64,000 nucleotides of DNA from Stramenopiles sp. TOSAG23-2 (Eukaryota). The notes under the pieces were generated by a model. That model was not told where the DNA came from and made no database searches. It was given only the letters and a program-made list of their open reading frames with translations. Shown here one piece after another: positions 189 to 49,365 of this stretch (positions within the stretch are counted from its first letter, which is position 1; every line of letters begins with the position of its first letter). The position numbers were made by a program, and so were the translations under genes. The stretch lies in contig LT649242.1 of the NCBI GenBank assembly GCA_900128395.1, positions 1-64,000 on the forward strand, read 5' to 3'.

Positions 189-1232
189 ATGTCATCTAAT
201 GCCGAAATTAATGACAGATTAAAAGATTGTCTTGACAATTGGGGAATCTTAGAATGTAAGAAAAATATTTCGTTGTTGGCTCAAGTGCATTGTAATGGAA
301 ATGAAGAGTATGTGAACGCTTTTCTTCAAAAAACCATTCCCACATCAATTAACAAGCAGTTAAAATCTTTATCGAATGAGAAGTTATTATTATACCATGA
401 CAGTTATGATGACTTTACTCAAATGCTTATTACAATTTCAAATGATTCATTGATTGTAGAAGAAAATTTCGAGGATAAAAGTATATTTTCTAAATTTATA
501 ACAGACAAATTAAAAAGAAAAGTAGCAAATGATGAAAAAAATTTTGGAACTATTCTTACTTGCTCATTATGTACATGTAGTGTATATGTAAACAATAAAA
601 ATGAAAAAAATTACACAAATAATTGTATTTGTAAAGAACATCTTTTAAATGTGTCAACGAATATTTTCCGTATCGATAAAGAAAGTAACAAGCTTAAGAA
701 GATTTGTGTTTGCTGTGAAAATGAGTTTGCATGTCAAAACTGTGGTTGTTTTAAAGGACCATCATCTACTGATATAAACATTTCTTACTGCAGGCATAAT
801 CATGATAATAATAATACTTTTAATATCAATGTAAAAACTGGATTAAGAAATAAAATATGCCATTATTGTTTAATAAAAGAAAGAGAAGTGAAAAAAGCGA
901 GACGAGAAAAATTGAAAAAGGACAAAGAAAAAACAACATCGCTGTTTAGTAATTGTGTAATTAACATGCATGATAAAAGAAGAGCACCGAGAAAGGCATT
1001 AAATTTTGAGAAACAAGGTATTTGTAAAATTTTAAAAAATTATGAAAAGGATTATTATTCATTTGCAACGCCATTACAAAAAAAAGGATTATTAAAAAAA
1101 ATAAGAAGACAAACAAAAAATATATTTGATATAGAGCGTTTGGAAATATTAATGGAAGGTATTAGAGATGAAAATGTAAAACAAAATACAAATGATGTAA
1201 AAAAAGAAAGTGATACGCGTGAAGCAATTTAA
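189..1232 (+). CDS. Cys/His-rich putative zinc-binding protein with basic C-terminal region; second gene of the element
   Basis: 347-aa ATG ORF starting 12 bp inside the left arm. Contains CSLCTC, CICKEH, CVCC-CQNCGC, CRHNH and CHYC, followed by REVKKARREKLKK. Confidence 0.75.
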   Translation: MSSNAEINDRLKDCLDNWGILECKKNISLLAQVHCNGNEEYVNAFLQKTIPTSINKQLKSLSNEKLLLYHDSYDDFTQMLITISNDSLIVEENFEDKSIFSKFITDKLKRKVANDEKNFGTILTCSLCTCSVYVNNKNEKNYTNNCICKEHLLNVSTNIFRIDKESNKLKKICVCCENEFACQNCGCFKGPSSTDINISYCRHNHDNNNTFNINVKTGLRNKICHYCLIKEREVKKARREKLKKDKEKTTSLFSNCVINMHDKRRAPRKALNFEKQGICKILKNYEKDYYSFATPLQKKGLLKKIRRQTKNIFDIERLEILMEGIRDENVKQNTNDVKKESDTREAI

Positions 1233-1326: not shown

Positions 1327-4300
1327 TTACTCCATTGCAGAAATTTTGTCATTATCTTCAACAGCTAAAGTTCCAAATTCATCCGCATTTGGGCAAATGA
1401 AATGATCCTCGTCTGGATTGTCAAAACTTACACAATTGCCATCGCGGTTTAAATATGTCGGTTTTAAACATGTACAACATGCTTGAAGGTAATTACCTTC
1501 ATAGGAAGGCAATGCAATTGATTGTAAATACCGTTTGGTAATGTTTTGTGCTTCTATAATTTTTTCCTCAGAACCAAAATTATATTTCTTCTGCTCTATT
1601 TTCAATGCTTGAAGATTATATTCTACATCATCATCTAAAATTTTATTGTTACTTTGTTCATTTACATATTTCATATACAATCTTCCACGTTTAAATGTTT
1701 TCATGATATCCCGGCTATCACCTCCTTTCTTTATTATTGCTATGAATGAATTGACCGATTTTAATTCTTGTATTTGACAATCTGGTACAGTTTTTGATTT
1801 CAAGCTATGGACAACTTTATTTAATTCAAAGTCCAACTGTATATGACATTCATTATGGCAGCATGTTTCATCTTCTTTCGGTGTTCCATCGGGAATAGAA
1901 GGTCCAATAACAGTTACGTGATCCATTTTAAATTCCATCCGGTACTTCATTGATCCCCAATCAATTCGAATAATTTGTTTACTATAAACAACATGTAGGC
2001 ATAATTGATTTTTAAATGTATACACCTTGTTGTCACCATAATGTATTTCTTTTATTTTGAACTTGCGTGAATTTGGCGCTTGCTCATTCATAGGAAGTGA
2101 TGGTATAGTTGCCTGAATTTTCGCAATTAGAGTATCTTTCAAAACTTGTTGCGATGGTAATTCACTTCTGCTTAAAGTTGGTTTTATACACTCATATACG
2201 TCGCAATGTGGATCCATCATCCAAGGTTTAAACGTTGGAAGATCATTAGTTAAATTATCTTTCAATCTTAATATTCCAGCAATAGATTTATCTTCAATTT
2301 TATAATTTTTAATAAAAGTTTCTTTTGTTTGTAAATGAGATACATCTTTTCCAGCATACTTGCATGAGCCATAAATACATGTTCCGCAGCATGTATGAAT
2401 ACGTGATTTGGCATCTGGGTATTTTTTACAAATATCATTGTATAAATAATTTGTCCAAGCTAATAATTTTACTTCCTTTTTCTTGTCAACTATCCATTGA
2501 CTAGTAATACTTAACTGTGATCGACGGTTGTTTGTTGAGGCACGTCTATCTCGTTGTACCATCTGGGCTTTATTGCATTTTGCTGCACGCATTGCACGAT
2601 CTCCAATTCCACCAGCATTATTACTCATATCATATTCTTTATTACTTGAAACATGTTGCATTTCCAAACCTTCACCATCTGTTGCAGTTTTCGCTGTCAT
2701 ATTATCCAGGTAATACTTTTCTGAGTTTGTTTTTATACGATACAGTTGCTGCGATAATTCCACCGTGCCTCGCAATTGATATGGCTTAATTGCTTTATTT
2801 GATTCCATGCAACGGATTAAATCCACCAGGAAACATTGGCTTTTAGCTGCATATGGAACACCATCTTTGAAACGGTTTGCATTCATTGTTTGACAAGTAA
2901 CTGCAAATTCATGATTTACCATTTCTCTCATCCTGATAAAATCGCGTTCTGCATCTGAAAGTTTTGAACGATCAGGTAATGATAAACCACAACAAGCACA
3001 TGTTTCATTAAAAAACGGGGAAGTTAAAAATGGGGAAATTAATGCTAATTTCACAGCATCACCGCCATTAATTTTTAACGCACCATTTTCTTCAAGTGAT
3101 CTACTTTCAACTATGAAAGTATTTATTTTGTGGCATTCCCGTAGATGATCTATGTACTGTTTATACATTTTTTTCCCGCCATACTTGAACATCACCTTAC
3201 ACATAAAAACAAGGTGGTTGTTTGACATTGGTGTCATCACCACATGGAACATGCATGCCGCTGCATCATTTATTAACGGTGGCTTTGGCCGTCCAATATG
3301 CGATACGTAATTTGGTGCCATTGCCTCAACCATGTTTGTTCCTCGCATTAATGTTTCGCCATTGACACTACTTCTTAAAATTATACCCGTAGCTAACGTA
3401 AATGGAATTGGCAAGGTCCATCTTGGTAAAACATTTCTGCCTAATTGAGCATATAATCCTCCGCCATCCAAAATAGTATATAAATGCGGAATTTTCATAA
3501 ATTCAATTGTATATGAACTATCTTCATGATCATTTAACACCAGCGTTTTTCCATTCAAATCTTCTTTTTTAAAAAGTTGATTTATATAAGGTTGTAAATC
3601 TTTGTATTTGTCATTGTCATTTGATAATGCAAATTGTTGAAGATATCTGTGTCCACTAGCTTCTAATAATACAAATTGAATCGTAAATACTGTTTGATTC
3701 ACCGATTTCTGCAACACAACATTTCCAGATGCTAATCGATGTGCATCACTGTTTATTGTATAACAAACTTTAAACGGGCCGTCATCACTTTCATTCTTAT
3801 TAAATTTATCAATTTTATATTTTATTATCTCTAACAGAAGATACCGAAAGCTAGTCTCTTTTTTTAAAACTTCTTTGTAATACTCGAAGCTGCTTGGTCG
3901 TATTGCTAATCCTATAACGTTGTTAAAAACTATCGTCTCTATTTTATAGTCCCGTTGTTGCGCCATTTTTTTTATCGCACTTATTCCACTCACTTTAAAA
4001 TTAAAAGGTAAATACATATTGTGTGTATTATCCACCATTTCTTGTATTATAGGGTGAAAGGCATATTGCCATAGTCTATCAGTCACTTTTACAGCAGTAT
4101 AGATATTCAACATGAACTCATCCATTTCTTCTTTTAATGATTTTTTCCAACTGTTAACTATATACTGATTTAAAACATACGTAAAATATGGTTGAAGTCC
4201 ATAATGTATCAAATCATTACATAAAGCAACTAGTTGATCATTTAAAATCTCAACAGTCTCATTTTCTTCCTCGTCGTCAGTGTCAGTATCCATCATATTA

Positions 4301-5307
4301 AGACTATCATTATTTGCAAAATGTGTCAAATCAGTATCTGTTGCCTCTAACATTAACATCACTATTTTTTCCACAATAGTGGTTCTTTCTCTATTTCTTA
4401 ATTCTGAATACTTTTGCTGCTTCGTTTCACTACCATTACTATTTTTTGTAACGACATCTGTACAAGCATTAATGAAGTTGATTATCTTTTTTCCTTCTAC
4501 GGTTTGTAAGAACGTTGCAATATTACCACCTTTGTTTCCTACATCATCATTGTAAATGAATAAACATTCTTTTCTATTCCCTCCTATGCTTCTAATTCTT
4601 GCTTTGGTAATACAGATTCTAAGTTGATCACATACCTTTTTAAATCCTCCTATATCATTTTGAACCCAACTTTTAATTAATTTGATATCTTCTGATGATA
4701 GTGTTAAAATCATGTTTATCCATTTATAATATTTGCATTTATGATTTAATAATTTTTCAATTATACCTTGTTGCAAATGAGATAAATTCTTGTAATCATC
4801 GGTTGATTTGATTACATCGACAAGTTTATAATAATAGATACCAAAATTTTGGTAATCGTTGTAATGTTTCAAGCATTGTATGCCTAAACACCCAAGCCTA
4901 TCCATCATTTTATCTAAGTAGTTTCTATCTACTGCAGATAGTATAGTATCAACACCTGTATGTGCTTCTGTATCATTGTTACTATGACTAATGCCACTAC
5001 GACGACTTCTTCTTGTAGCTTTGTTTCTTTGATTTACAAGCTGTTGTGTTTTTTTAAACTCTTCAAAATTATCTAAAGTTTTCAATAAATGTAAACAACG
5101 ACGTTCAGCATCTGTTATTACTAATGGTTTTGGTGACATATGTTCACGCATGAACTCATACAGTCGTTTATTGCAAAACAATATACAACTATAATCTTTT
5201 AATCTATCTATTGCATATTTTAAAATAAGCTTTAGATTATCATCCGGTATCTTTTCAAAAGGAAAAGAAAAATCAGTTGCACAACTACCATCATATAAAG
5301 CAGACAT
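1327..5307 (-). CDS. RAG1/Transib/Chapaev-like DDE transposase with F-box-like N-terminus and Cys-rich C-terminus
   Basis: Uninterrupted ORF, first ATG at 5307. Motifs in RAG1 order: GPFKVCYTINSD, NDNDKYKDLQPYINQL, YTILDGG, CMFH, INGGDAVKL, DGEGLEMQH. Confidence 0.75.
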   Translation of the reverse strand: MSALYDGSCATDFSFPFEKIPDDNLKLILKYAIDRLKDYSCILFCNKRLYEFMREHMSPKPLVITDAERRCLHLLKTLDNFEEFKKTQQLVNQRNKATRRSRRSGISHSNNDTEAHTGVDTILSAVDRNYLDKMMDRLGCLGIQCLKHYNDYQNFGIYYYKLVDVIKSTDDYKNLSHLQQGIIEKLLNHKCKYYKWINMILTLSSEDIKLIKSWVQNDIGGFKKVCDQLRICITKARIRSIGGNRKECLFIYNDDVGNKGGNIATFLQTVEGKKIINFINACTDVVTKNSNGSETKQQKYSELRNRERTTIVEKIVMLMLEATDTDLTHFANNDSLNMMDTDTDDEEENETVEILNDQLVALCNDLIHYGLQPYFTYVLNQYIVNSWKKSLKEEMDEFMLNIYTAVKVTDRLWQYAFHPIIQEMVDNTHNMYLPFNFKVSGISAIKKMAQQRDYKIETIVFNNVIGLAIRPSSFEYYKEVLKKETSFRYLLLEIIKYKIDKFNKNESDDGPFKVCYTINSDAHRLASGNVVLQKSVNQTVFTIQFVLLEASGHRYLQQFALSNDNDKYKDLQPYINQLFKKEDLNGKTLVLNDHEDSSYTIEFMKIPHLYTILDGGGLYAQLGRNVLPRWTLPIPFTLATGIILRSSVNGETLMRGTNMVEAMAPNYVSHIGRPKPPLINDAAACMFHVVMTPMSNNHLVFMCKVMFKYGGKKMYKQYIDHLRECHKINTFIVESRSLEENGALKINGGDAVKLALISPFLTSPFFNETCACCGLSLPDRSKLSDAERDFIRMREMVNHEFAVTCQTMNANRFKDGVPYAAKSQCFLVDLIRCMESNKAIKPYQLRGTVELSQQLYRIKTNSEKYYLDNMTAKTATDGEGLEMQHVSSNKEYDMSNNAGGIGDRAMRAAKCNKAQMVQRDRRASTNNRRSQLSITSQWIVDKKKEVKLLAWTNYLYNDICKKYPDAKSRIHTCCGTCIYGSCKYAGKDVSHLQTKETFIKNYKIEDKSIAGILRLKDNLTNDLPTFKPWMMDPHCDVYECIKPTLSRSELPSQQVLKDTLIAKIQATIPSLPMNEQAPNSRKFKIKEIHYGDNKVYTFKNQLCLHVVYSKQIIRIDWGSMKYRMEFKMDHVTVIGPSIPDGTPKEDETCCHNECHIQLDFELNKVVHSLKSKTVPDCQIQELKSVNSFIAIIKKGGDSRDIMKTFKRGRLYMKYVNEQSNNKILDDDVEYNLQALKIEQKKYNFGSEEKIIEAQNITKRYLQSIALPSYEGNYLQACCTCLKPTYLNRDGNCVSFDNPDEDHFICPNADEFGTLAVEDNDKISAME

Positions 5308-5379
5308 TATATCTATATACAAACAGTTATTATATAGTTACGTTTCATATATGTGGTTGTCTATATCTAGAGTAAACAC

Positions 5380-6010
5380 TAAATGTAACAATGCAATTCC
5401 GTATCGTATATATAGTCGTCTCTATTGAAAATTAACACCAATTTACAAACGTAATGGTTATTGTCGATACTATGATAAAGTACTAAGTATTCAATATCTT
5501 GTCAATCCACACGGGTGAATCTTCTAAAATGTTATATGAAAACTATCGATGCAAGTTTTAATATTATATATGCAATATATATGTAATATATATTAAACGT
5601 TATTGTATATATACAAATGTAACACTGGTATTACGTATCGTATATATAGTCGTCTCTATTGAAAATTAACACCAATTTACAAACGTAATGGTTATTGTCG
5701 ATACTATGATAAAGTACTAAGTATTCAATATCTTGTCAATCCACACGGGTGAATATTCTAAAATGTTATATGAAAACTATCGATGCAAAATATGTAATAT
5801 ATATTAAACGTTATTGTATATATACAAATGTAACACTGGTATTATATATTGTATACAGTCGTCTATATCGAAAATTAACACCAATTTACACACGTAATGG
5901 TTATTGTCGATACTATGATAAAGTACTAAGTATTCAATATCTCACTGACCCGCTCAATACGGCCAAGAAGAATGTTATATGGAATCGATCGATGCGAGTT
6001 TTAGATATAA
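5380..6010 (+). repeat. Right inverted-repeat arm built from three tandem units of about 185-235 bp (5381-5614, 5615-5825, 5826 to about 6010)
   Basis: The block aaaattaacaccaatttaca.acgtaatggttattgtcgatactatgataaagtactaagtattcaatatct occurs three times; the third unit is visibly more diverged. Confidence 0.95.
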
Positions 6011-6140
6011 AATATCAATATGTATATCTATTTTACTATATTATATATTATCTCTCTCTTTCTTTATCTTTCAGTCGAACTATATATATATATATTATAA
6101 TGTATTACTATTGAAAAAATAGTCCACAATTGTGCATAAA

Positions 6141-6488
6141 ATTTGCAAATCTTTTTTTAATAAAATTGAATTTATAGAGTAATGTTAAGGTATATTAAAA
6201 TATCGCAATGGTCGTACTTTGGCGTTCCGATTGCGTATGGATAGTATAAATAATGGCATCATAATCAACAATGGCCTGCCTTAGCGCCTGCTGGAAATGT
6301 GGAATGTTGTGATGATTTGCAAATCTTTTTTTAATAAAATTGAATTTATAGAGTAATGTTAAGGTATATTAAAATATCGCAATGGTCGTACTTTGGCGTT
6401 CCGATTGCGTATGGATAGTATAAATAATGGCATCATAATCAACAATGGCCTGCCTTAGCGCCTGCTGGAAATGTGGAATGTTGTGATG
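6141..6488 (+). repeat. Exact 174-bp tandem duplication, possibly an assembly artefact
   Basis: atttgcaaatcttttttt...tgttgtgatg starts at both 6141 and 6315. Confidence 0.9.
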
Positions 6489-6664
6489 AAATAAATCAAA
6501 TAAAAAATTATTCAAAAAATAAATAAATAATAAAAATAGGCAGCACATAATAATTTCAATAATACCGACCGACCTGGTATAATAGCAATAATAATTCGAA
6601 ACAATCAATAATCATAATAATAAATAATTATTCTAATAATCCAGAAGATCTTTGTATAAACAAT

Positions 6665-6907
6665 ATGTCGGATACGTTGTCTGCAAGTCAACATGCTGCT
6701 AAAAATTATGGTGGTTCTGCATCGGACTCATCGCTAAGTGCATCTGAGTTAAGACGTCGTCATGGAGTTAGAAACAATAATCAAGATTGGGCTAATAAAG
6801 CAGCGCCTGGTGTATCTGTCAATGGCGATGATGGAAGTACAATGATTATAGGTGTTGTTGCTTTGATATTATTTATAGCAGTCGTTGCATTTTTCGTTCG
6901 AGGTTAA
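6665..6907 (+). CDS. Small tail-anchored membrane protein, unknown function
   Basis: 80-aa ATG ORF with coding-like composition and a C-terminal hydrophobic helix (MIIGVVALILFIAVVAFFV) followed by RG-stop. Confidence 0.65.
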   Translation: MSDTLSASQHAAKNYGGSASDSSLSASELRRRHGVRNNNQDWANKAAPGVSVNGDDGSTMIIGVVALILFIAVVAFFVRG

Positions 6908-7243
6908 TATATATATGTTTTTATTGCAGTTATATTATTTCTTGAAATTTCCTATCGACGAATTGATGAGGAATTGGATTTCTACCACATGTAGAGATAT
7001 ACAAACTGCGATTATTAAAACTTGCGCTTATAATAATCGTTTTGCTTTAAAATGTGCATTTGGTGAGTCGTACAATGACTTGTACCCCGGTACAATTTAT
7101 TCTCCGCCTTCCTATGATGTTCGTTTTTCATCAACTGCTACGAGTAGTTGATACCATCTATTTACCTTCATTGGTTTTCTCTATTATGGGAATATCAACA
7201 CATTAGTGTGAGATAGATTATTTCAGTTATCATATTGTATGAT

Positions 7244-7270
7244 ATTCTTTTGAAGAGTAGGAATTATCAT
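7244..7270 (+). repeat. Dispersed intergenic motif ATTCTTTTGA(A)GAGTAGGAATTATCAT, copy 1
   Basis: Same core at 14902, 31377, 41371, 62372 and 62504. About 7184-7290 also matches about 31327-31420. Confidence 0.9.
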
Positions 7271-7532
7271 CCATGAGTAAATTAAAAAACAAATAAATTA
7301 ATATATATATATATGCGTAAATTATTCTTTTATATATCATATGATATCATATCCTATTGTATCCTATACCCATCATATGATATCAATATGTATAATAATA
7401 TATGATATGCATATGCAAGTATGATATGATATCATTTAAACCAATCATACAATAAATATTTAAAAATAATATATGCTCTTTTTTACCACCACATACTTTT
7501 TTCGTATTATCTTGGCCTATATCATCATGCTT

Positions 7533-8318
7533 TTACGAATTAAACAAATTATATAAAAATGCTATACCTGCCAAGACAATACTAGCTGTGTGAGTTGATT
7601 TATGTAAAATTGCCCCTGGACCACAATCCATTTCTTCATAAAACGTTTCTTCATCTACTCCTGAATAAGACGAACCACAAGATTGACAGAAATTCTTAAA
7701 GTAACCGCCTTCTACCCTTGAATAATCGTCATCGCCTTCGCCCCAACATTCCCATAATTCTTTACATAACCAAAACATTGATGATTTTTTGCAATAGCCT
7801 ACTTCCTCGCAAGAACATTTAGAAACTGTTTTTCGTTTTGTAAAAGCCAAAAAATCGTATTTAGCGCACATACCACTACATGCTGCACCATGTTTCTCGT
7901 ATCTTCGTGGAGGGCCAAATCTCCCTGTCTTCAAAGTTTTCATGTCATCTCTACAACATTTTTCGAATTCGAAAATATGTCTTTCATTTGACAACGCTAA
8001 CTTTCGTACTTTGCATTCATCTGTTTCAAGCCCCAAAGGCTCGCAATCTGCTTTACTGCTGCATATAGTACCACCAGTAGGTTTACCATTTTTGTCTAAA
8101 TCGCCATAATCTGCACAACGACTAAAAAGAGCACAGGATCGATGGGCCGATTCTTGCACCAAGTAATCATTCCACTTCTTTAAATCACATTTCGAAGGGT
8201 TTACAGGAGCTTCGGTAGCTGCCGTGTCTTGAGAATATACAAATGGCACGTGACTACATATTATAATGACTAAAACAAAAAGACTGGTATTAATAATACA
8301 AGATGAAGCTATAGTCAT
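7533..8318 (-). CDS. Secreted or GPI-anchored cysteine-rich surface protein
   Basis: N-terminal signal-like segment ending VYS-QD, many cysteines, hydrophobic C-terminal tail with no cytoplasmic region. Confidence 0.8.
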   Translation of the reverse strand: MTIASSCIINTSLFVLVIIICSHVPFVYSQDTAATEAPVNPSKCDLKKWNDYLVQESAHRSCALFSRCADYGDLDKNGKPTGGTICSSKADCEPLGLETDECKVRKLALSNERHIFEFEKCCRDDMKTLKTGRFGPPRRYEKHGAACSGMCAKYDFLAFTKRKTVSKCSCEEVGYCKKSSMFWLCKELWECWGEGDDDYSRVEGGYFKNFCQSCGSSYSGVDEETFYEEMDCGPGAILHKSTHTASIVLAGIAFLYNLFNS

Positions 8319-8844
8319 GTTTACTATCGGGGAAAGGATTCACACAAGCTGTATATAGTAATTGCTTTGGTAATATGATATTATTAATTTGTATATATGT
8401 AAATTGCAATATATATATATATGAAAACAATATACTTTCGTAGATTGTATTATCTTAATTTAAATATAATAACGGGCGAGATGTAAATAATCATTTACAT
8501 TGTATGTGATAATATATTAATTAAAACAAAAGTAGTGTGCTAGTTGCAACCCAGCAAACCGGCAAACCACCGGCAAAGTGTGTGCAAAAAAAAAACTACT
8601 AGCCAATAGCAAAAAAGGCTGGCCTGGCTGGCAATAGCACCAGGAATAGAATGGGTTATATATACCTTAAATACAATATTTAAAAACACTGAATCGAGTG
8701 AGATATTTGAAATTCTCTCTATTGTGTACAAAGGTTGTACATACTGGTATGTGGTACAAAATATCATTAACATGTGGTATGATGCATATGACATTATATA
8801 AAATGTATAATATATATACAATGTATATATATATATCACATAAT

Positions 8845-11208
8845 TTACGCATTACTTGGTAATCGTGTTGCATTATCTTTTTTAGGTTCGTCTTCGTCCA
8901 TAGCTTTTTCCTCTTCTATTTCTTCTTCACTCATAAAATATTTTCCATTGGCTAATAACTTCAACAACAGTAAGCAAACTTTTAAGTTTTTTTTTTGTTT
9001 AACATTATGATACATTGGGCCATCTAACATATTATACATCATATCCGCAACACCATCTTCCTTCAGTTCATTAATTTGTGATAATTGAGCTAATAAATTA
9101 CACGCAGTTGAAAATTCTTCTTTTGTAATTGCTTCTTCACCTGTTTTCGTTCCATCAAAATATATGTACAATGGCCTTGAGAATTTTAATACATATGCTT
9201 GGACATTGCGTTTTTTAGAATCTTTTTTCTCTGTCAAGCCTTTATCAAATAAAAATTGTTGGTAATTGACTTCATTGGTCTCTAAATCCATTTCATCCCA
9301 ATCTATTATATCACTTCTATCCATTAACCAAGGTACATGTAATCCAGTCCCAGCTTCCATGACTTGGGCCCACTCTAAGATGGTAACCATTCCCGTTTTT
9401 TTATAATCTATTTTATGAAAACCTTTTTCCAAATCTAATAAATGCTCCCTCACTGCATTAGATAAACCTCTCACTACAGTACGAACGTAAATAATATGAA
9501 CTTGTTAGAAAATTTGATCGTTGTACAATGTGTAATTGATTATTTCTAATACAAGATGATACTTACAATAATGATAATGTTTATCACGTTTCCCACCCTT
9601 AACTGAAAAGCTACATGGATGTATTTGTAACTCGTTTTTTTCTACTAGTAAGTATCCTCCAAGATTCGATTTATTGCCAAAATACGAAGATGCGCTGAAA
9701 ACGCGAATGCAATGCGCGACATCATCTTTGTAACCATCTTGTAATGGTGATCCAGATATAATAAGAGTATTTAAATTGCAATTCTCTAATACACGTTGTA
9801 CATGCTGAGTGTCGTACAATATACTAATTCCACGATCTTCGTTAAAGCTGATGTTGGCAGATTTATCATACAAGTCACTCCATAAAATGTCTTGAACTAT
9901 GCAATGATTTCTTTCCTCCTCCGTCATCTGCATTAAATCAACAGAGACGCCAATTTTTTGGAAAAGATTGCCTACATTTGCTTCATTGCCACGTTTAATA
10001 TTTTTAACAGATTCTAAATCTATCCGTTCATCTCTCCATATCCCACTGTGGCAAATCAGACATTTTTCATATAATTGTATACATAATGGTAGAAAATGAA
10101 ATAAATCATGTAAGGATACAAATAGTTTATGTAAAGTAGCCTGATTTTCCGTAGTTGGAATATAAATGGAACATATTTCATGCACAAACCCAAATTTTAA
10201 ACTATAAGATGCATGTTCGTGATTACCACGTAAGAAGTAAACTGATTCAGGTTCTGCAATGCTCCACAGCATAATCATTGTCAAGCAATGTATGCTTTTC
10301 GGTCCGTAATTAATGATATTACCGGTAAATATATATGGTTTGTTTTTTGTAGGAACCCCGTTATCATCAATAATTTCCATCAAATCCTCGAAATGCCCAT
10401 GCAAATCTCCAACAATAACAAATAATGGAATATTGCTTTTTTTCTTTGGTAGTGATATAAGAGTTTCTTCTAGTTTAATAATGTTATTATACGCTTCTAT
10501 GATGGTTAAAAAATCATCCAATTCTAGATATGAATTTGCTTCTGTTGTTTTGCGAAAAGATTGTAAAACTGCATTGATATTATTTGAAGAATATTGGAGT
10601 TTTGAATTTTTTTTATTTGGAAATGGAAATGTTGTTTTCATCGTCGTTACATTCCTATCCATGCACAAATTATGTTTTTCAATTCTTTTGGAATATACAT
10701 TTTCATAAAAATTAGTATATTTTGTTGCGTGCCGCTCAAAAAATAACTCTAGTTGATTTCTATTTCTCCAAGTTGTTTTTTGAATTAATATCTTTTCCGC
10801 GCCTCTCTTTCTAACAAGTTTTTGAATCGTTATACAGGCTCTTCCTTCTTCTGTTTGATTCCGAGCGTCTTCCTCCATCTGTGATTCCCATGTATCTTGC
10901 TTCTCTGTTGCAGCTACCGTTTTCATACGTTCATTTGATAGTGAATCCATATGTTGCAAAGCTTTTTGAGCTTCGCGTACCATAGCTTCCGATTCCTCTC
11001 TCTTAATATTCTTTGGAACTGGCGTAACAATTTTGATTTGCTGGTTAATGGGATCAGAGTTATTGTTGTTATTATTGCTTTTGTTAGTAGTAGTATTAGT
11101 AGTGCTAGTTGCGTCAGTATTTGTATCCCTCTCCTTCTTTGCCATTATTGAGTTACCATTATCAATCTTCTGAGTTTTATTCTTCTTTTTAGATGCGCCA
11201 CCTCCCAT
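8845..11208 (-). CDS. PPEF/rdgC-like Ser/Thr phosphatase with IQ and EF-hand regions, probably catalytically degenerate; one intron at 9474-9566
   Basis: MGGGAS myristoylation-type start, IQ motif (ITIQKLVRKRG), GDLHG, RGNHE and DILWSD. Intron GTAAGT...TTCTAAC...TGTAG joins the 567-aa and 209-aa ORFs in frame. Confidence 0.85.
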
Positions 11209-11855
11209 GTTATTTACTTATTACCGTGGTTGGTATTATTAGTTACAGTTAAGAAGACGAGTATCCAATTTATGCGCCACAATATAATCAACGATAATTT
11301 ACAACAAACTCATAGGCGTATTAGTTTTTGTTGAGTGTGTGTTTCCGTGATGTGTTTTACAAATACGATAATATGTAATATGTGAGTATAATATTATATT
11401 ATTGCAACGTGCTATTATTGAAGAAATAATAATACCTATTTATTTTTTATTGCCAGGTAGTAGGATTATGATTGCTGGATTGCACTATTATTTACTATTA
11501 TTATTAATATACTATTATCAGAACAGTATACTATAGTACTATAATATAATACTGGTATAACCATATTAATACCAGACCAATACTATAATAAAATAAAAAA
11601 ATGCCAGAGAAGTGTAAAATTATTATAACTTTTAGATTTTAACCATCATAATATCATATAATATCGTATATATACATGAGTAAGAGAAAATTTTATATAA
11701 TATGAAGTGTGGAAATACACAAGCACTTCATTATGAAGTAATATTCAACCGAGGGTGGTGAACATTAAATTAATATGTATATGAAGATCCAACAGAGTCT
11801 GAATTGCTGGAGGAAGTGTTTTGTAATATATATATATATATATGATGTGTGGTTA

Positions 11856-36935: not shown

Positions 36936-39900
36936 ATGGCCAAATTTTTATCAGAACAAGATTTTATCTTTCATCGAATTGATGGTAGTAGTGATAGTGA
37001 CAATGCAATAATAAAAGATACTGCATTAATATTAAATCAAGAGTGGCCAAATATCAAATTACAATCAAGAATTGAATGGTTATCTCGGAGTTCGATTAAT
37101 AACTTACCAGCATCTTGGGTGTTATTAAATACTAATAATAAAGCAATCGCGCATGTGCGACTTTCAACTAAGTACAAAGAAGAACAGAGTATAAGCAATA
37201 ACAACAATAACGATAACAATGTCAAGAAAAATTTACGTGAAAATATTTCTGTAATTGCGACGTCTGTTGTTGTTGCGAAACAACTTCGTGGCCTTGGCGT
37301 AGGTAAAATTTTGTTAAAAAAAATGCATGAATGCTGTTTTGACTTGGGTTTTGGCAGAGTAGTATTATGGACAACCGATGCTGTCGGGTTTTATTTAAAA
37401 TCAGGATATAAAAAAATTCAGCCGTTGAAAAAGAATATCCCGAATGTAATTGCAAAACATTTTTCAGATACATCATTAGATAATTTACGCAATGTCTTAA
37501 TGAAAAAGCGAAAAAGTATCAATAATAATAATAACAATAATAAAACAAACCAAAAAATAGCTACAAGCGAATCAGTAAGTGAAATTTTAGACGGTGATTC
37601 AAATTTAGAAAATAACACTTGGCTTGCTTTTCGAGTTCGAAGTTCCTTTAAACCATTTTATCGTAATAAAAAAGCTATGGAAGAAGAAATGAATCATTTA
37701 TTAGAGAGTGGGCATTTCACTAATAAACAAACTAATAATGATGTTGACGAATTGAAAACTACATACATTAATCATGTCCCATTTGAAAATCAAATTGGTC
37801 CTATGTGTGGTATCTCGGCATTAAATTGTATGAAAGAATATTTTAAGAACACAGTCAAAGCAAAGAATTTGGATATTAATTCAATACAGGTTGATAAGAT
37901 TATTATAAAATCTAAAGATGCTGATGGTAATAATATTGTAATGGAAAAATACAAATCAAATAAAAGTGGATGGGGGAAATCATGTTCAACAATGTCATCA
38001 TCATCATTATCATCACAGCAACAACAACAACAACAACAACCTATCTCAATTTTAGAACAAGCGCAGAAAGAAAAGATTACAACAGACGGGGAATTATTTG
38101 ATATTAAAAAAATTGGTAAATTGGCAGCAATGGATGTTTGTGATTTAAATTCAGTTGTTGTTGAACGTATGTCATTACGTCTTATCATAAATTTATTGTT
38201 AAATCGATTGCCTGTATTAATCTGCTACGACAGATCGTCATCTTCATCTATTTATGGTGTCTCCATGAAAAAAGGTAAAGCGGCGCATTGGGCTCTTATT
38301 GTTGGTTTCATACTAACAAAACAAATGAGGGATAGCAATAGTCATATGTTAAATACTAGCAATAGTGATAATAATGGAAAATACAAATATGTCTGGTTAG
38401 ATGAACATAAAACAAATATCCAACAACATGCCATTCATTATGCTGTTGATGATGATTGTAACGATGATATCAACAATGATCCAATACTGATATTGCAGCA
38501 TGGTATGTCTCAAAAAGTATTATTTTGCCCTTGGAGTAAGTTAAAAGCATCAAACTTACAAGTTGAGGAATATGCAAGAACCTTATCAGAAGATAATTCA
38601 CTGCGCTATAAAAAGTTAGAATGGAAACATATTTCAAAACCAACCTTGAAAAATTGTATTTTATTTCTTTATCCAACATTATCAGAAACATTGCAAAAAG
38701 AGAAATGGTCAAATGTCCTAGATGCGTATTGCAAGACAAATTATTACATAGATATAACATCCTCGCAAGCAATTAATCAAGTCAACGTTATGATAAATCA
38801 TGAATTACCAAAACAATTGTTAGATTGGTTATTTACATATACAAATTCATATCGTACAGAATGGTTCATAGCTACTGCATTTAATCCAAATTCAAAGCCA
38901 TGCGACGTTGCCACGAATTTACAAGAAAACGATGTACTAGAGAAATACATTATTGAAAAAAAGTGGTTATATTTAAAAGGTATAGGCCAAGATCCAAACA
39001 TGGAATGGCCAGGTGAAAATCACTTTTTAATATGTGCTACTTATATGGATGCAATGGAAATTATGGCTCGTTTTCATCAAAACGCAGTCGTTGTATCCTC
39101 ATCTGCCATAGTAAATGATCAAATGATTCAAAAATTACCAAATCTTCATGCAAAATTATTATTTAATAATGGTTACGTCTACCCACCCCACAAAGAGGAG
39201 GATGATAAAGAAGCGCACATAGAGGATATACTACCTCCAAATAATACAAGAAGAAGAAGAAGAAGACAACGTACTCGGCATGAACCACTAATTGAGAATA
39301 AACGCCCTATTAATTTAGTATTAATCGGTGGAGGTGTTGCAAGTATAAGTTGCATTGATACTATTCTTGACATTGCAAATTTAAATGAGTCGAATGAAGC
39401 TTCAAGTATTGAAATATATTTAATTACCCCGTCAGAGAATATACAAAGATTGAAAAAAAAACGGCGATTATCAAGTTATTTAAAAGAATATGAGATAAAA
39501 TATGAAAATGCTGCGATATTAGCAAATAAAGGTGTTAAGGTAATTCAAGATACTGCAAAAGGTTTGAATATGGAAGAAAAGCAAGTTTTGTTGGAGTCAG
39601 AAAATATCGTATCATTTGATAAATTATTTATTGGTACAGGCGCTTTGCCGAATCTACTTTTTCGTTCCCCATTCTGTCTTAGTGTACGAGACAAAGCAAG
39701 TGTAATCGATCTAGGTAAGCGTGTTAGCACTTCTACACATGTTGTCATTGTTGGAAATGGTGCTATTGCAATGGAAATGGTTGAAGCCTTGCGTGGTACT
39801 ATGATCGACATAACTTGGGTAGTAAAAGACAGTTACGTTGGCAATACATTTTTTGATCAGAGTGCATCTGCATTTTTTCAATCAAAAATATTTGAAAATA

Positions 39901-41033
39901 GAAGACGATCTGATTGTCATAAATATGCAATTCCACTATCAAATGCAAATCATTTTCAGTGGCAAATACTATCACATGATGATGTTAAGAATAAGGCAGA
40001 TGATGAGCAAATGTTTGTTGATGAAGATGAATTGAACAATGCAATAAATATAGAAAACAACGTATTGTTTGGACATTCACTAGGACCGAGCTGGTTAAAT
40101 GTTTTGAATCAAAATATAAAAGATAATAAAGTAGACAAGAATGATAATAATTTTACTGACGATGATAACAATAATGCTGGAATGGAAAATAGTATTAGTA
40201 GTCTTCCAAAATTGAATGTAGTTTATAATGCAACTATTGCAAAATATGCAGATACATCTATGGATGACACAAATGAATGGAATTTGCACATTTGCTTAGG
40301 AAATGGAAGTATTTATTGTTGCGATTATCTTATTTCTGCTACAGGGGTACTTCCAAATACCCATTTCGTTCGTAGTAGTAATGTTAATGACAATATTTAT
40401 TTCGCAGAAGATGGTGGTATACCAGTAAAAAGTAACTCTATGCAAACGTTCTTTTCAAATGATGTATATGCTGCAGGTGATTGCTGTACAATCGTAGTTG
40501 AAAGGGAGGAGGAAGAGGAGGATAGCAACCATTGGTTTCAAATGCGGCTATGGGACCAAGCAATGTATACAGGGCAAAAAGCTGGGATTTCTATGATGTC
40601 TTTTGAAAATAAATTTTACGATTCGTTAAATTTTGAATTATTTACACATGTAACAGAGGCATTTGGATACAAAGTTGTGTTGTTGGGGCGTTACAATGGT
40701 CAAGGTATGAGTGAAGAGTATATCAATGCACTGCAGTCTATTTCACTTGAAGCAATAGAATCATCCTCTCCATCGTCTTTAAATTTAAATAAGTATAAAT
40801 CAACCGCAATGTCGACATTGAAAAACGATAATGATGTTGAAATTTTCTTACGATGTACACCTGGTACTGAATATATTAAAGTTGTAGCGGTAAATAATAA
40901 AGTTTGTGGGGCTATATTAATTGGCGAAACAGATTTAGAAGAGACATTCGAAAATTTAATTTTATCACAAATAAATATCAAAGGTATGGATTTATTAGAT
41001 CCTAATATTGATTTAGAGGATTATTTTGATTGA
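36936..41033 (+). CDS. Four-domain fusion: NAA80-like GNAT, ACTMAP-like cysteine protease, DUF3293-like domain, PYROXD1
   Basis: Single 1365-aa ORF: LNQEWP...AHVRLS...SVVVAKQLRGLGVG; QIGPMCGISAL...GELF...CYD...KGKAAHWA...SNLQV; TAFNPNS...EWPGE...RFHQNAVV; IGGGVAS...WFQMRLWDQA...LLDPNIDLEDYFD. Confidence 0.88.
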   Translation: MAKFLSEQDFIFHRIDGSSDSDNAIIKDTALILNQEWPNIKLQSRIEWLSRSSINNLPASWVLLNTNNKAIAHVRLSTKYKEEQSISNNNNNDNNVKKNLRENISVIATSVVVAKQLRGLGVGKILLKKMHECCFDLGFGRVVLWTTDAVGFYLKSGYKKIQPLKKNIPNVIAKHFSDTSLDNLRNVLMKKRKSINNNNNNNKTNQKIATSESVSEILDGDSNLENNTWLAFRVRSSFKPFYRNKKAMEEEMNHLLESGHFTNKQTNNDVDELKTTYINHVPFENQIGPMCGISALNCMKEYFKNTVKAKNLDINSIQVDKIIIKSKDADGNNIVMEKYKSNKSGWGKSCSTMSSSSLSSQQQQQQQQPISILEQAQKEKITTDGELFDIKKIGKLAAMDVCDLNSVVVERMSLRLIINLLLNRLPVLICYDRSSSSSIYGVSMKKGKAAHWALIVGFILTKQMRDSNSHMLNTSNSDNNGKYKYVWLDEHKTNIQQHAIHYAVDDDCNDDINNDPILILQHGMSQKVLFCPWSKLKASNLQVEEYARTLSEDNSLRYKKLEWKHISKPTLKNCILFLYPTLSETLQKEKWSNVLDAYCKTNYYIDITSSQAINQVNVMINHELPKQLLDWLFTYTNSYRTEWFIATAFNPNSKPCDVATNLQENDVLEKYIIEKKWLYLKGIGQDPNMEWPGENHFLICATYMDAMEIMARFHQNAVVVSSSAIVNDQMIQKLPNLHAKLLFNNGYVYPPHKEEDDKEAHIEDILPPNNTRRRRRRQRTRHEPLIENKRPINLVLIGGGVASISCIDTILDIANLNESNEASSIEIYLITPSENIQRLKKKRRLSSYLKEYEIKYENAAILANKGVKVIQDTAKGLNMEEKQVLLESENIVSFDKLFIGTGALPNLLFRSPFCLSVRDKASVIDLGKRVSTSTHVVIVGNGAIAMEMVEALRGTMIDITWVVKDSYVGNTFFDQSASAFFQSKIFENRRRSDCHKYAIPLSNANHFQWQILSHDDVKNKADDEQMFVDEDELNNAINIENNVLFGHSLGPSWLNVLNQNIKDNKVDKNDNNFTDDDNNNAGMENSISSLPKLNVVYNATIAKYADTSMDDTNEWNLHICLGNGSIYCCDYLISATGVLPNTHFVRSSNVNDNIYFAEDGGIPVKSNSMQTFFSNDVYAAGDCCTIVVEREEEEEDSNHWFQMRLWDQAMYTGQKAGISMMSFENKFYDSLNFELFTHVTEAFGYKVVLLGRYNGQGMSEEYINALQSISLEAIESSSPSSLNLNKYKSTAMSTLKNDNDVEIFLRCTPGTEYIKVVAVNNKVCGAILIGETDLEETFENLILSQINIKGMDLLDPNIDLEDYFD

Positions 41034-43663: not shown

Positions 43664-46600
43664 TTAAAAAAACAGCCCACCCTCATCTTCATCATCATCC
43701 AAATGATTGAAATATTCATCTATATTGGACGCAATTTTTGGTCCACCACCATCTTTCCTCATCTCATCGACCTCTTCCATTATTTGTCCTAATCCTACTC
43801 GTTTATTAGCCATATCAGCAAGATTCACCATCGATGCACTTGCCTTGTTTCGTTGTAATTGTCGTTTCTCAGCAAATGATGTTAACGATGCTAGCGAATC
43901 ACGATCTCCAACTCCTCCTAATGTTGTTGATACAGCAGTTGTTTGCGATCTACGTACCGCTGTGTTCATCCGTAATCCAAGCATCCCTCCACTACTACGG
44001 CTGTTAAAATCGCTATTTGAAGCACCCCCATTTTGCGGTCGTAAAGATCTTGATTTATTCATACCTTTTAAATCACCCATGGAACGACTTCGAATGGACA
44101 TCCTTGATAACCAAGATACTTTTGCCAATGATTCTAACAAGGTACCAACATCATCTGATGAATGGATGAAATACCTTGCACTTGATGGTTTTGCGCCTAC
44201 TGTGGCTGTAAATATTTTTGTGCGCGTACCACTACTACTTTTATGGGAACTGAAAGCAGAATTTGAACTGCTTAATGAGTCCCGGCTTTCATTTCGTTGA
44301 CTTGCACCAAATGCAGTCAAATCATTGAAACTACCTTTACTAAGACTTGCTAAATTATTACTACTACTGCCACTTTTTGCCCTTGGTGGTATTGCTTTAT
44401 CCGTAGGCCCACCCTTACCAGACAACTCTTTTGACTTGCTTCCAAAGAAAGCAGATTCTTTAATGTTATCTTCTGTAGTTTTCGTGTTACCATCATTCTT
44501 GCTCCTATTTTGTCTTGGCGTTTGCAATTCACCTTGCCTATGACGTTCATCTACTTTCATTCCCATTACACCAGCTGCAGATGCAGGGCCTTGTCTCGGA
44601 ACTAAACCACGCTCTTCATAACGTGCATGTATTTTTTGAAACATTGGTTCATCATCGTTTTCATCTCCAATACATAAAATGAAATCAACCGGGGCACTTT
44701 TTTGTTGTTGTTTTTGTGGTGAATCTGAGAAAGTTACACGTGGGCGTCCACTGGTAGTTCCATCACTTCCTATGGCTGAGTCATCTTGGCTAATATTGCT
44801 ATTTTCATTATCGCTTTCCACTTCATCATTTTTGCTTTTTTGATCAGCATAATTTAAAATTTGAACTACCATTTGCCCTTTATCCACACCTTCTGGTCTA
44901 ACTTCCACAGTTTCTTTTCCCCTAATGATTTGTACAGGGAAACGTTTTAATACTACGGATAGATGGTCTTTTAATTCTTTTGCTTGCATGTTGCCAAAAT
45001 CCTTATCTGTATCTTGAAATCTCCAAATAACTGCGCTGCCCTTCACATCTATATACGACCCTGTTGTTCTCATAGTATAAATTTGCATGATTTGTTTCAC
45101 AGTATCTTTCCATGAATCGTCAAACATTTCATTTGTCATTTGCCATTTAGAATCAACTTTGTTCCATTTATATGTAAATCCATTTTCCGCTGCTAAACCA
45201 ATGTTGGAGGAATCGCCACCTAATAAATGTTTTAAAATTTTCTTTTTTTCGCCACTCAATAAGAAAACAGTATTGCGAGTTGTATCAGCTGCCATGCGCT
45301 TAATAGCTTTTAATACTTGTTCCGTCGGTCGTCTAGCCGTGCTATCAGCCGCGGTCGTCGTCGTTTCGATTGTATTATCATTATTACCACCGAACTGTTC
45401 GTTACCGTTGCCCTCGTTTTTCGTCTCAACGTCAGTAGTTGCATCCTTATTTTCATTATTGCTACTACTATCATCTTTACTAGCCCTACGTCTGCTTTTT
45501 GCTCGTTGGTACATGCTTAGTGGATCTAAATTTGCTGCTGCGGTAATAGTACCCCCAACATCTAATAATATTACACGATTAAACGATGAACGATATGCAT
45601 CTACAACTGCAGTGTGATCAAGCTTTGAAAAATCAGATTGTACTCCCATCATTTTAAATTCCAAACCAAAACCATATCCAATGCGTAATTTACCAGTACG
45701 ATTCTTTTTAAATCGTTTTAAATCTGTTAATACGCGTTCTGCCCAACTAGTCGTAGAATTTTGCTGTATCCAAACTGTGTTTTGCTCTGCCCGCAACGTT
45801 GTTTCCATTCCTTGCATTGTTAAACATCGATCTATTATTTTAGCAACACCATCAGCTTCAAATGGGTTAAATACTACTGCACCAGGCAATATACGGCTAG
45901 CCGATGCGAATTCACTAATTGCTAAAATGCCACATGGCATATTGTTTTCTTTTGCTCGTATCGCGCAATATTCCAAGGGCATTAAATCCAAACCTTGACG
46001 TACACACGTATTTAAATAGATATCCCCAATTTTAAACAATGCAGTACGTTCATATACATTTACACGATCTACTTCGTGATAGATAATTGCTGGATTATCA
46101 CCGCCATCACTAATACCAGTAGCTGCTAAATTTATTTTACTAATCTCTTCGTTAATTCGCTTTTTCGTATCTACATAATCATCCCCACGCTCAGGACATC
46201 GGAGACCATACTGTATCAAGACACAGCGACCGACCCATTGTGGATTTGCATCTAAAAACGTGCGATATGCTAAAAGCTTAATTGGCAAACCGCACATATA
46301 TATNNNNNNNNNNNNNNNNNNNNNNNNNNNNNNNNNNNNNNNNNNNNNNNNNNNNNNNNNNNNNNNNNNNNNNNNNNNNNNNNNNNNNNNNNNNNNNNNN
46401 NNNNNNNNNNNNNNNATGCGAGCAATACCAGCAATATATTTTTTTCGATATGAATTCCCATTACTTGAACTACCAGTGGCATTACTTGAAATATTATATT
46501 TATTGCGAAAAATAGCTAAATACTCCTCCGTTTTTGGCATACTAAGTCTATTAATTACAACATCTGGTTCAATTGATGCATGTGCTACTGTAACTACAAC

Positions 46601-48220: not shown

Positions 48221-49365
48221 GATCAATATATTATTTCTTAATATTACGTAAGTGATGAGGAATGGATGATTACATGCAATGAAATTATTTGTTGCAATAC
48301 ATATATATCGATATATATTATATATATATCCATCATGACCATCCTTTATATTATCTTCTTTTTTTCCTTTAGTCTATCTGGCTACATACAGTATCTTGTC
48401 GTCTCTTGCAACTACTCTTGTGCTCTTCATATCACATGGTTTTTTTTTACCTGCGTGGATTATAATACAGTATTAGCACATTACGAGGCACCACCACTAA
48501 CTAAGGAAAAGTCTAGGGATTAAGGCACCACATTCATTTTTTTCCTTTTTTGTTGTGTTATAATTTAACCGTGTGATAGCTAATCGATTTGTACTTATTA
48601 CTATATACGTACATTTTCATAAAACTGAAAAATGATATTTTGATATTTAGTTTTTGTGTTTTTGTGTTTTTGTCGGGTTGATATACTTATAGGAACATAA
48701 NNNNNNNNNNNNNNNNNNNNNNNNNNNNNNNTGAGATACTTATAGGAACATAAGAGTTTTTAGTACTTAAAGTATACAGTTTTATATTAATAATCCCATT
48801 TTTTTTTTTTCAGCTATTGATGCACTATTAATATTTGAAATTATTGGGATCCCACAGGATTAGGATCCTCTCATCCTCTCTCCTCTACTATTGGGTTCAT
48901 TGTTGGGATGCATGATGTTACATGTATTAATTGAATTAATACAATGATAATATATATTGTATTTATCTTCTTAAATGGAAAGATAGATATTATAGATACA
49001 GATTGTTTTTGAGAACCCAGAGAACAGAATCTAATATTTTTTATTACATATATTTTCTGGTATCAAATTAAAGAATATATTTATAATAGAAAAGGAAGGG
49101 AAAAAAAAAAAAAAAACAAATCAAAGTATAGTATATATAGANNNNNNNNNNNNNNNNNNNNNNNNNNNNNNNNNNNNNNNNNNNNNNNNNNNNNNNNNNN
49201 NNNNNNNNNNNNNNNNNNNATATTAATAGTGCATCAATAGAGGGAAAAAAAAAAAAAAACAAATCAAAGTATAGTATATATAGATATAGATAGATTTTGC
49301 AATATATAATAATAAAAATATATTATTATTTTATTAAAGATATACAGAAATTATATAAATAAAAA

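Follow-up and report, generated by a model that had tools for sequence, protein, structure and literature searches.

An inverted-repeat cassette with an orphan protein in Stramenopiles sp. TOSAG23-2: chance-level likeness to RAG1 and a possible, highly divergent DDE transposase

The window analyzed here is a stretch of 64,000 nucleotides from Stramenopiles sp. TOSAG23-2 (contig LT649242.1 of GenBank assembly GCA_900128395.1, positions 1 to 64,000, forward strand), at whose left end two convergent open reading frames (ORFs), ORF1 and ORF2, are bracketed by inverted repeats. In the initial annotation, a RAG1-like catalytic core had been proposed for the ORF2 product on the basis of a motif alignment made by eye. 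We find that this proposal, as far as RAG1 itself is concerned, is not supported by homology searches, by shuffled-sequence controls, by the order of the CxxC motif or by the modeled coil around the proposed catalytic glutamate. The broader notion of a DDE core with an RNase-H-like fold, as in RAG1, Transib, EnSpm and Plavaka, is weakly favored by the neighbors of the protein in a language-model atlas and by the layout of the cassette. In the following, we describe the cassette, examine the motif alignment and weigh the possible readings of the protein.

The ORF1–ORF2 cassette and its distribution

The cassette and the relevant parts of the ORF2 product, referred to as P0001, are as follows:

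1–183 (no strand): left inverted-repeat arm, cut by the window start and ending 5 nt before the ATG of ORF1
189–1232 (+): ORF1, 347 aa, cysteine-rich, intronless and convergent (tail-to-tail) with ORF2
1327–5322 (−): ORF2, encoding the 1331-aa orphan P0001, which belongs to no family; open from a TTG, with the first ATG at residue 6 (window position 5307)
2640–4110 (−): residues ~405–894 of P0001, the core proposed in the initial annotation, containing D526, D619, H693 and E887
3130–3255 (−): cluster of cysteines and histidines (C690-x2-H693, H703, C708, H726-x3-C730-H731), the best-conserved block of P0001
1765–2679 (−): alternative DDE placement, chosen post hoc: D882(G), D963, C979/C982, D993-x2-H996, H1156-x3-H1160 and E1167 or E1186
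5380–6048 (no strand): right inverted-repeat arm with three tandem copies (5380–5554, 5608–5788 and 5819–5997) and similarity extending to ~6048

The TTG of ORF2 is preceded, at a distance of 58 nt, by the first right-arm copy, which, read in inverted orientation (5554–5380), matches positions 1–177 with 94.4% identity over 177 nt; the other two tandem copies match with 90.7% and 85.8%. A single metagenome contig (L001) was retrieved with P0001 as query, carrying a 94%-identical copy of residues 775–1331 together with an intact ORF1 (93% identical), and there the left repeat continues leftward for 57 nt or more, in step with the spacer on the right-hand side. ORF1 and ORF2 form a convergent two-gene cassette. 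Long inverted repeats, reiterated in tandem, flank it and are also found immediately upstream of the start codon of each gene. Neither an Rfam nor a tRNA scan of the repeat region and the window gave a match. Just outside the inverted-repeat array, a 174–175-nt unit occurs twice in tandem at 6141–6489, the two copies being identical throughout and likewise negative for Rfam families and tRNAs; this duplication could be recent or an assembly effect.

Both frames stay open in L001. Compared with this contig, omega is 0.69 for residues 775–1331 of ORF2 (13.5 synonymous against 38.5 non-synonymous differences) and, for ORF1, 0.97 (6 against 26), which, on so few differences, points to weak constraint on both genes. 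No credible joint that skips the cassette was found in the sequencing runs. The contigs of a polyA metatranscriptome (X15) lie on neighboring genes (6619–7026, 7368–8407 and others), and that none is listed on ORF2 is no evidence of its silence.

Relatives of P0001 are scarce. A phmmer search of 1.84 billion representative proteins yielded nine sequences, namely eight short environmental fragments and a bacterial RTX protein. Some of the fragments are 97–99% identical to P0001 and stem from the same or a sister taxon, and others reach 72–79%; the diverged ones are P0004 and P0009 (~51%, residues 620–760) and P0005 and P0006 (~33%, residues 340–500). Among the 1.84 billion representatives there was no full-length relative, and a cluster look-up gave no longer or named member. 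Likewise, a word-indexed search of 5.8 billion proteins, conducted for near lengths, for shorter lengths and at E ≤ 10, found no homolog of P0001, an alignment-based query (A2) matched nothing in the metagenome contigs, and no relative appeared in IMG/VR with either query or in the GTDB contigs. The window itself contains no paralog or second copy. P0001 is a lineage-restricted, single-copy gene product.

In the cysteine/histidine cluster, all seven residues are kept in P0004 and the last three in P0009. A GRPK motif just upstream (residues 677–680) is also kept in P0004. Residues 690–731 probably constitute a zinc-binding module. P0004 begins one residue past a DGGG motif, and no diverged homolog covers D526, D619 or E887; L001 keeps E887 and is too close a relative to be informative. 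As for ORF1, searches of Pfam and NCBIfam at E ≤ 10 assigned it to no family, including Kelch and PHD, the propeller and the finger that make up RAG2.

P0001 shows further local resemblances. The bacterial RTX protein found by phmmer (P0010), the only long match of that search, was rejected as a relative; residues 1040–1105 of P0001 (2008–2205, −) resemble its HCBP_related repeats with a pairwise E of 9e-07 and a library E of 4.9e-4, and Pfam does not call an HCBP_related domain in P0001. Residues 939–960 (2443–2508, −), ITSQWIVDKKKEVKLLAWTNYL, provide the only PDB match for the C-terminal part, a 22-residue likeness to the C-terminal W-motif of the BRCT domain in REV1 (E 0.48), which either hints at a BRCT-like module or is due to chance. 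Residues 24–60 (5143–5253, −), IPDDNLKLILKYAI, look F-box-like by eye, with no Pfam F-box match at E ≤ 10. Pfam matches to DUF7785 and DUF7786 (E 0.07–0.09) were dismissed as chance, DUF7786 being absent from all five other members of the alignment, and the same applies to DUF3536 (E 0.034). Finally, residues 505–850 and 851–1331 show no internal duplication (best E 0.49).

The motif alignment with RAG1 and the candidate catalytic residues

The initial annotation had aligned six short strings of P0001 with RAG1, and all of them are found where it placed them: GPFKVCYTINSD at residues 515–526, NDNDKYKDLQPYINQL at 568–583, YTILD at 615–619, CMFH at 690–693, INGGDAVKL at 751–759 and GEGLEMQH at 883–890. 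Its codon positions are accurate as well (D526 at 3745–3747, D619 at 3466–3468, H693 at 3244–3246 and E887 at 2662–2664), as are the spacings of 93 aa between D526 and D619 and of 268 aa between D619 and E887. The mouse RAG1 triad that served for comparison, D600/D708/E962, agrees with the catalytic residues given in bioRxiv 10.1101/698332.

For the alignment as proposed, the accompanying claim that chance would hardly produce six motifs in the same order and spacing does not survive a comparison with shuffled sequences. For this comparison, we used the unverified RAG1 strings given in the initial annotation and summed BLOSUM62 scores over their 53 positions. The proposed placement has 19 identities in these 53 positions and a total of 74. 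If only the order of the motifs is constrained, the highest-scoring collinear chain in P0001 totals 86, and composition-preserving shuffles of P0001 score 84.0 on average (standard deviation 6.8), with 112 of 300 reaching at least 86 and 283 of 300 at least 74. With the RAG1 spacing of 108 and 254 aa imposed at a tolerance of ±15, the top chain totals 82 and has its third motif at residue 644 rather than 615; this score is reached by 4 of 200 shuffles, and the 74 of the proposed placement by 31 of 200. At ±25/±40, the respective counts are 11 and 60 of 200. In every test made on the sequence, the RAG1 likeness of P0001 is no better than chance.

Structure prediction offered limited guidance, because the available alignments are so shallow that AlphaFold2 failed. 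The model of residues 330–960, based on a six-row alignment, has a predicted local distance difference test score (pLDDT) of 43 and a predicted template modeling score of 0.24, the model of residues 505–800, based on three rows, has a mean pLDDT of 34, and both are unusable as models. A Foldseek search of the PDB with the first of them gave nothing at E ≤ 0.001, and a wide VIA search returned only helical-bundle matches (Z ≤ 6.6) to model residues 24–127, which are uninformative on the fold. Both low-confidence models nevertheless place strands at ~518–524, 531–540, 543–555 and 558–566, a helix at 574–583 and further strands at 593–598 and 602–610. The first adds a short strand at 617–619, ending at D619, which lies in coil in the second; D526 is located just past the first strand in both. 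The pattern across residues 518–619 would be compatible with a β1-β2-β3-α-β4 unit of the RNase-H-like type, and D526 and D619 would fit the predicted strands. In the first model, residues 857–940, including E887, are coil and adjoin an indel relative to L001. E887 is a poor catalytic candidate.

Possible readings of P0001

We tentatively read P0001 as a highly divergent cut-and-paste transposase of the RNase-H-like DDE type, either low-copy or domesticated, that would belong to the broad CMCT assemblage. This is a possible rather than a probable reading, and one that we barely prefer over an orphan zinc-binding protein, to which we return below. It draws on the neighbors of P0001 in the ESM-Atlas. 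For residues 380–960, these are three unnamed eukaryotic clusters (0.91–0.92), followed by Transposase_21, Plavaka and a SAP-bearing cluster (0.90). For residues 505–900, Plavaka accounts for 7 of the 30 matches to named clusters (best 0.90), Transposase_21 appears at 0.89, and clusters with RAG1_RNase_H, ZnC2 and ZnH2 domains occupy ranks 4, 7, 16, 17 and 28 (0.87–0.89). In PMC12730594, EnSpm/CACTA, Plavaka, Transib and RAG1 are grouped as one 'CMCT' clade, with 5'-CA..TG-3' termini and duplications of 2–5 bp, and the neighbors are coherent because the Plavaka, Transposase_21 and RAG1 families all fall within this clade. These neighbors and the inverted repeats around the gene are the only hints of a very divergent transposase, and weak ones. 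Also in line with it are the layout of two convergent, intronless ORFs between the repeats, the sparse distribution, the weak constraint, the low-confidence strand pattern of residues 518–619 and the conserved cysteine/histidine cluster past D619. If this reading is correct, P0001 would bind the repeats through its zinc-binding and AT-hook-like elements, and would cut or join DNA by means of acidic residues on an RNase-H-like sheet.

Several observations weigh against it. The PDB contains RAG1, ProtoRAG and Transib chains, and Pfam contains RAG1 models. Pfam searches (hmmscan, E ≤ 10) with the whole of P0001 and eight sub-fragments returned neither RAG1 nor any transposase family, NCBIfam gave no match to P0001, and phmmer and hmmsearch comparisons with PDB chains at E ≤ 10, using the whole protein, residues 505–900, residues 860–1250 and a small profile (A1), brought up no RAG1, Transib or other transposase. 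As HMMER filters discard most matches above E ~0.1, a very remote relation to RAG1/Transib could have escaped these searches. The Atlas neighbors share 118–149 features with P0001, fewer than the 170 that genuine members of a family typically have in common, and count as 'leads only' by the calibration of the tool, in which shuffled proteins reach 0.9 in 4–10 of 100 cases and show ten-of-ten clan agreement in one third. Furthermore, the two queries overlap and are therefore dependent. As to the cassette, the repeats reach up to the start codons of ORF1 and ORF2, which also fits duplicated promoters, and neither termini nor a target-site duplication nor an empty site are visible, the left end lying outside the window. 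By depth, the cassette is single-copy, without sign of proliferation: in run X1, the contig over 93–5429 has a depth of 100.8 against 142–151 in its flanks, and in run X3, the cassette pieces have depths of 5.65–7.03 against 5.41–5.57.

The order of the candidate ligands points in the same direction. In RAG1, Transib and their relatives, the residues follow each other as D, D, C(2)C, H, H(3–4)H and E (PMC12730594). In P0001, D619 is followed by C690xxH693, H703, C708, H726xxxC730-H731 and then C775xxC778; the triad of the initial annotation departs from the canonical order of C(2)C before H(3–4)H, because there is no CxxC between D619 and H726x4H731. In addition, D686 is the only conserved acidic position from D619 to C690, and P0004 has a glutamate there.

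Other placements of the active site can be drawn. Residues 690–731 may represent a variant zinc site that is followed by E739, a residue alignable with the glutamate of 'ES[R]' in P0009. In the C-terminal half, D882/D963/C979xxC982/H996/H1156x3H1160/E1167 follows the canonical order, without support from any model or profile; written as a strict regular expression, this pattern also occurs in 100 of 3000 shuffles (in 16 of 3000 if DG is required as well) and in one of the seven other long ORFs in the window. By eye, the two placements, D526/D619-C690xxH693-H726x4H731-E739 and D882/D963/E1167 with CxxC, DxxH and Hx3H in between, are equally defensible. Given that three D-D-E placements can be argued by eye, short motifs decide little.

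It is hardly less plausible that P0001 is an orphan zinc-binding protein, probably nuclear or DNA-binding, without transposase ancestry. Its RAG1-like strings would then be due to chance, and the repeats would be duplicated promoter or 5'-untranslated-region units that co-regulate two lineage-specific genes. A motif alignment inside the range of shuffled sequences, the lack of family, PDB or fold matches, a repeat unit that abuts both start codons, and a single-copy cassette with flank-like depth in X3 are all in keeping with such a protein, as is the ease with which three D-D-E placements and a BRCT-like motif can be built by eye, since it shows how poorly short-motif reading discriminates. 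What speaks against it is that the Atlas neighbors from both overlapping queries fall within one transposase clade, that omega is near 0.7–1.0, and that a convergent gene pair is flanked by inverted repeats with 94% identity over 177 nt or more, which we judge to be unusual for ordinary genes in a compact genome.

We consider it very unlikely that P0001 is a strict member of the RAG1/Transib superfamily with the triad D526/D619/E887. The RAG1 clusters among its Atlas neighbors speak for such membership, and so does the spacing-constrained chain that only 4 of 200 shuffles equal, albeit with a different third motif. The gene layout can also be cited: ProtoRAG is reported to have convergent RAG1L and RAG2L genes between RSS (recombination signal sequence)-like terminal inverted repeats, and the genes of AanRAGL, an active RAGL transposon of the unicellular marine pelagophyte Aureococcus, are two single-exon genes bracketed by asymmetric terminal repeats with 5-bp duplications, though in the same direction (PMC9435367). 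The same source reports Transib-like proteins in bacteria, and known RAG1L and Transib proteins, with a mean identity of 26%, were discovered by ordinary homology search (PMC9435367). P0001 is undetectable in this way: Pfam and the solved RAG1, ProtoRAG and Transib chains remain unmatched at E ≤ 10. The missing CxxC between D619 and H726x4H731, the position of E887 in modeled coil next to an indel, and an ORF1 without Kelch or PHD match, and hence without a recognizable RAG2-like partner, argue against membership as well.

The cassette shares with ProtoRAG the two convergent genes between inverted repeats, with AanRAGL the intronless gene pair and the marine unicellular host, and with RAG1/Transib the D...D spacing of ~90–110 aa, the downstream cysteine/histidine ligand pairs and the RAG1 clusters among the Atlas neighbors. 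Unlike RAG1 and Transib, P0001 lacks detectable sequence similarity to this group and has its C(2)C and H(3–4)H out of the canonical order for the initially proposed triad. Unlike in RAGL transposons, the partner ORF1 bears no Kelch or PHD signature, and the repeats are at least 177–650 nt long and tandemly reiterated, whereas RAGL ends are short and RSS-like. That ORF2 and ORF1 are a RAGL/Transib-like two-gene transposon diverged past current profiles, and the second unicellular lineage after Aureococcus with a RAG-type recombinase, is very unlikely. If true, it would offer an outgroup from which the RAG1/Transib/EnSpm assemblage could be rooted. In itself, the occurrence of a RAG1-like gene in a protist would extend a known finding, because Tao et al. 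(2022) describe an active RAGL transposon from a pelagophyte, likewise unicellular (PMC9435367).

Among the named Atlas clusters, EnSpm/CACTA (Transposase_21) and Plavaka are the top neighbors of P0001 with both queries. CACTA elements typically have subterminal reiterated repeats and a second ORF, and the cassette resembles them in both respects. By eye, residues 515–625 of P0001 may be aligned with a Transposase_21 consensus. Unlike EnSpm and Plavaka proteins, P0001 has no Pfam match to PF02992 or PF18759 and no CxxC shortly past D619, and its cassette is present in a single copy. A search for Plavaka (PF18759) in 5 + 401 Planctomycetota genomes found none, and a degenerate pattern for a CACTA motif had 0 matches in the genome contigs. 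The hAT, MULE and P transposases have a C/DxxH motif; in P0001, C690-x2-H693 is likewise conserved downstream of D619, and, unlike in these families, Pfam matches to hAT, MULE or P-element are absent.

Lastly, the cassette might be the cargo of another mobile or viral element, such as an integrated-virus relic or a foldback-type element, with a non-transposase role for P0001. Its long, reiterated inverted repeats and orphan genes would suit such an origin. We regard it as very improbable, given that neither query found a relative in IMG/VR, that the GC fraction of the cassette (0.285–0.34) lies inside the range of the window (0.28–0.40), and that no viral hallmark gene is adjacent.

Should P0001 indeed contain a DDE domain, it would represent a transposase lineage outside the reach of Pfam in an abundant marine protist, with a bearing on the age of the RAG1/Transib/EnSpm assemblage. 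Should it not, it would be a cautionary case, in which 15–30% of shuffles yield six short motifs in the same order and at 'matching' spacing.

The host and the neighboring genes

The window is AT-rich, with a GC fraction of 0.28–0.40 along its length, and is densely packed with long, uninterrupted ORFs. Their domains include PLU-1/PHD (JmjC-associated), a calcineurin-like phosphatase, acetyl-CoA synthetase, calpain, BEACH and a fusion of CBM20 with trehalose-6-phosphate synthase and phosphatase (CBM20-TPS-TPP); further proteins are Tubby, DPCD, WW, LRR and GST homologs. The presence of DPCD and Tubby suggests a source cell with flagella, and the public runs that match the first 9 kb come for the most part from marine or seawater metagenomes, along with small organism-labeled runs. 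We accordingly take the source to be a marine flagellate that is uncultured or little studied.

Some of the neighboring features deserve mention. Two stretches, 7006–7472 and 11209–11675, have contig word-depths tens of times above those of their neighbors in all four runs (for example, 9494 compared with ~150 in X1); they consist of AT-rich simple sequence and are probably widespread low-complexity repeats. An EF-hand ORF (8845–9474, −) lies directly downstream of the calcineurin-like phosphatase ORF (9505–11208, −) on the same strand, and together they resemble a phosphatase of the PPEF type that is interrupted by a frame break or a short intron. In an unusual fusion, a single ORF of 1365 aa (36936–41033, +) combines a GNAT acetyltransferase, the C-terminal part of an ACTMAP-like protease, DUF3293 and a pyridine-nucleotide disulphide oxidoreductase/rubredoxin-reductase. 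Finally, the trehalose-6-phosphate synthase/phosphatase (43664–48226, −) carries its CBM20 starch-binding domain at the N-terminus, an architecture familiar from alveolates and stramenopiles.

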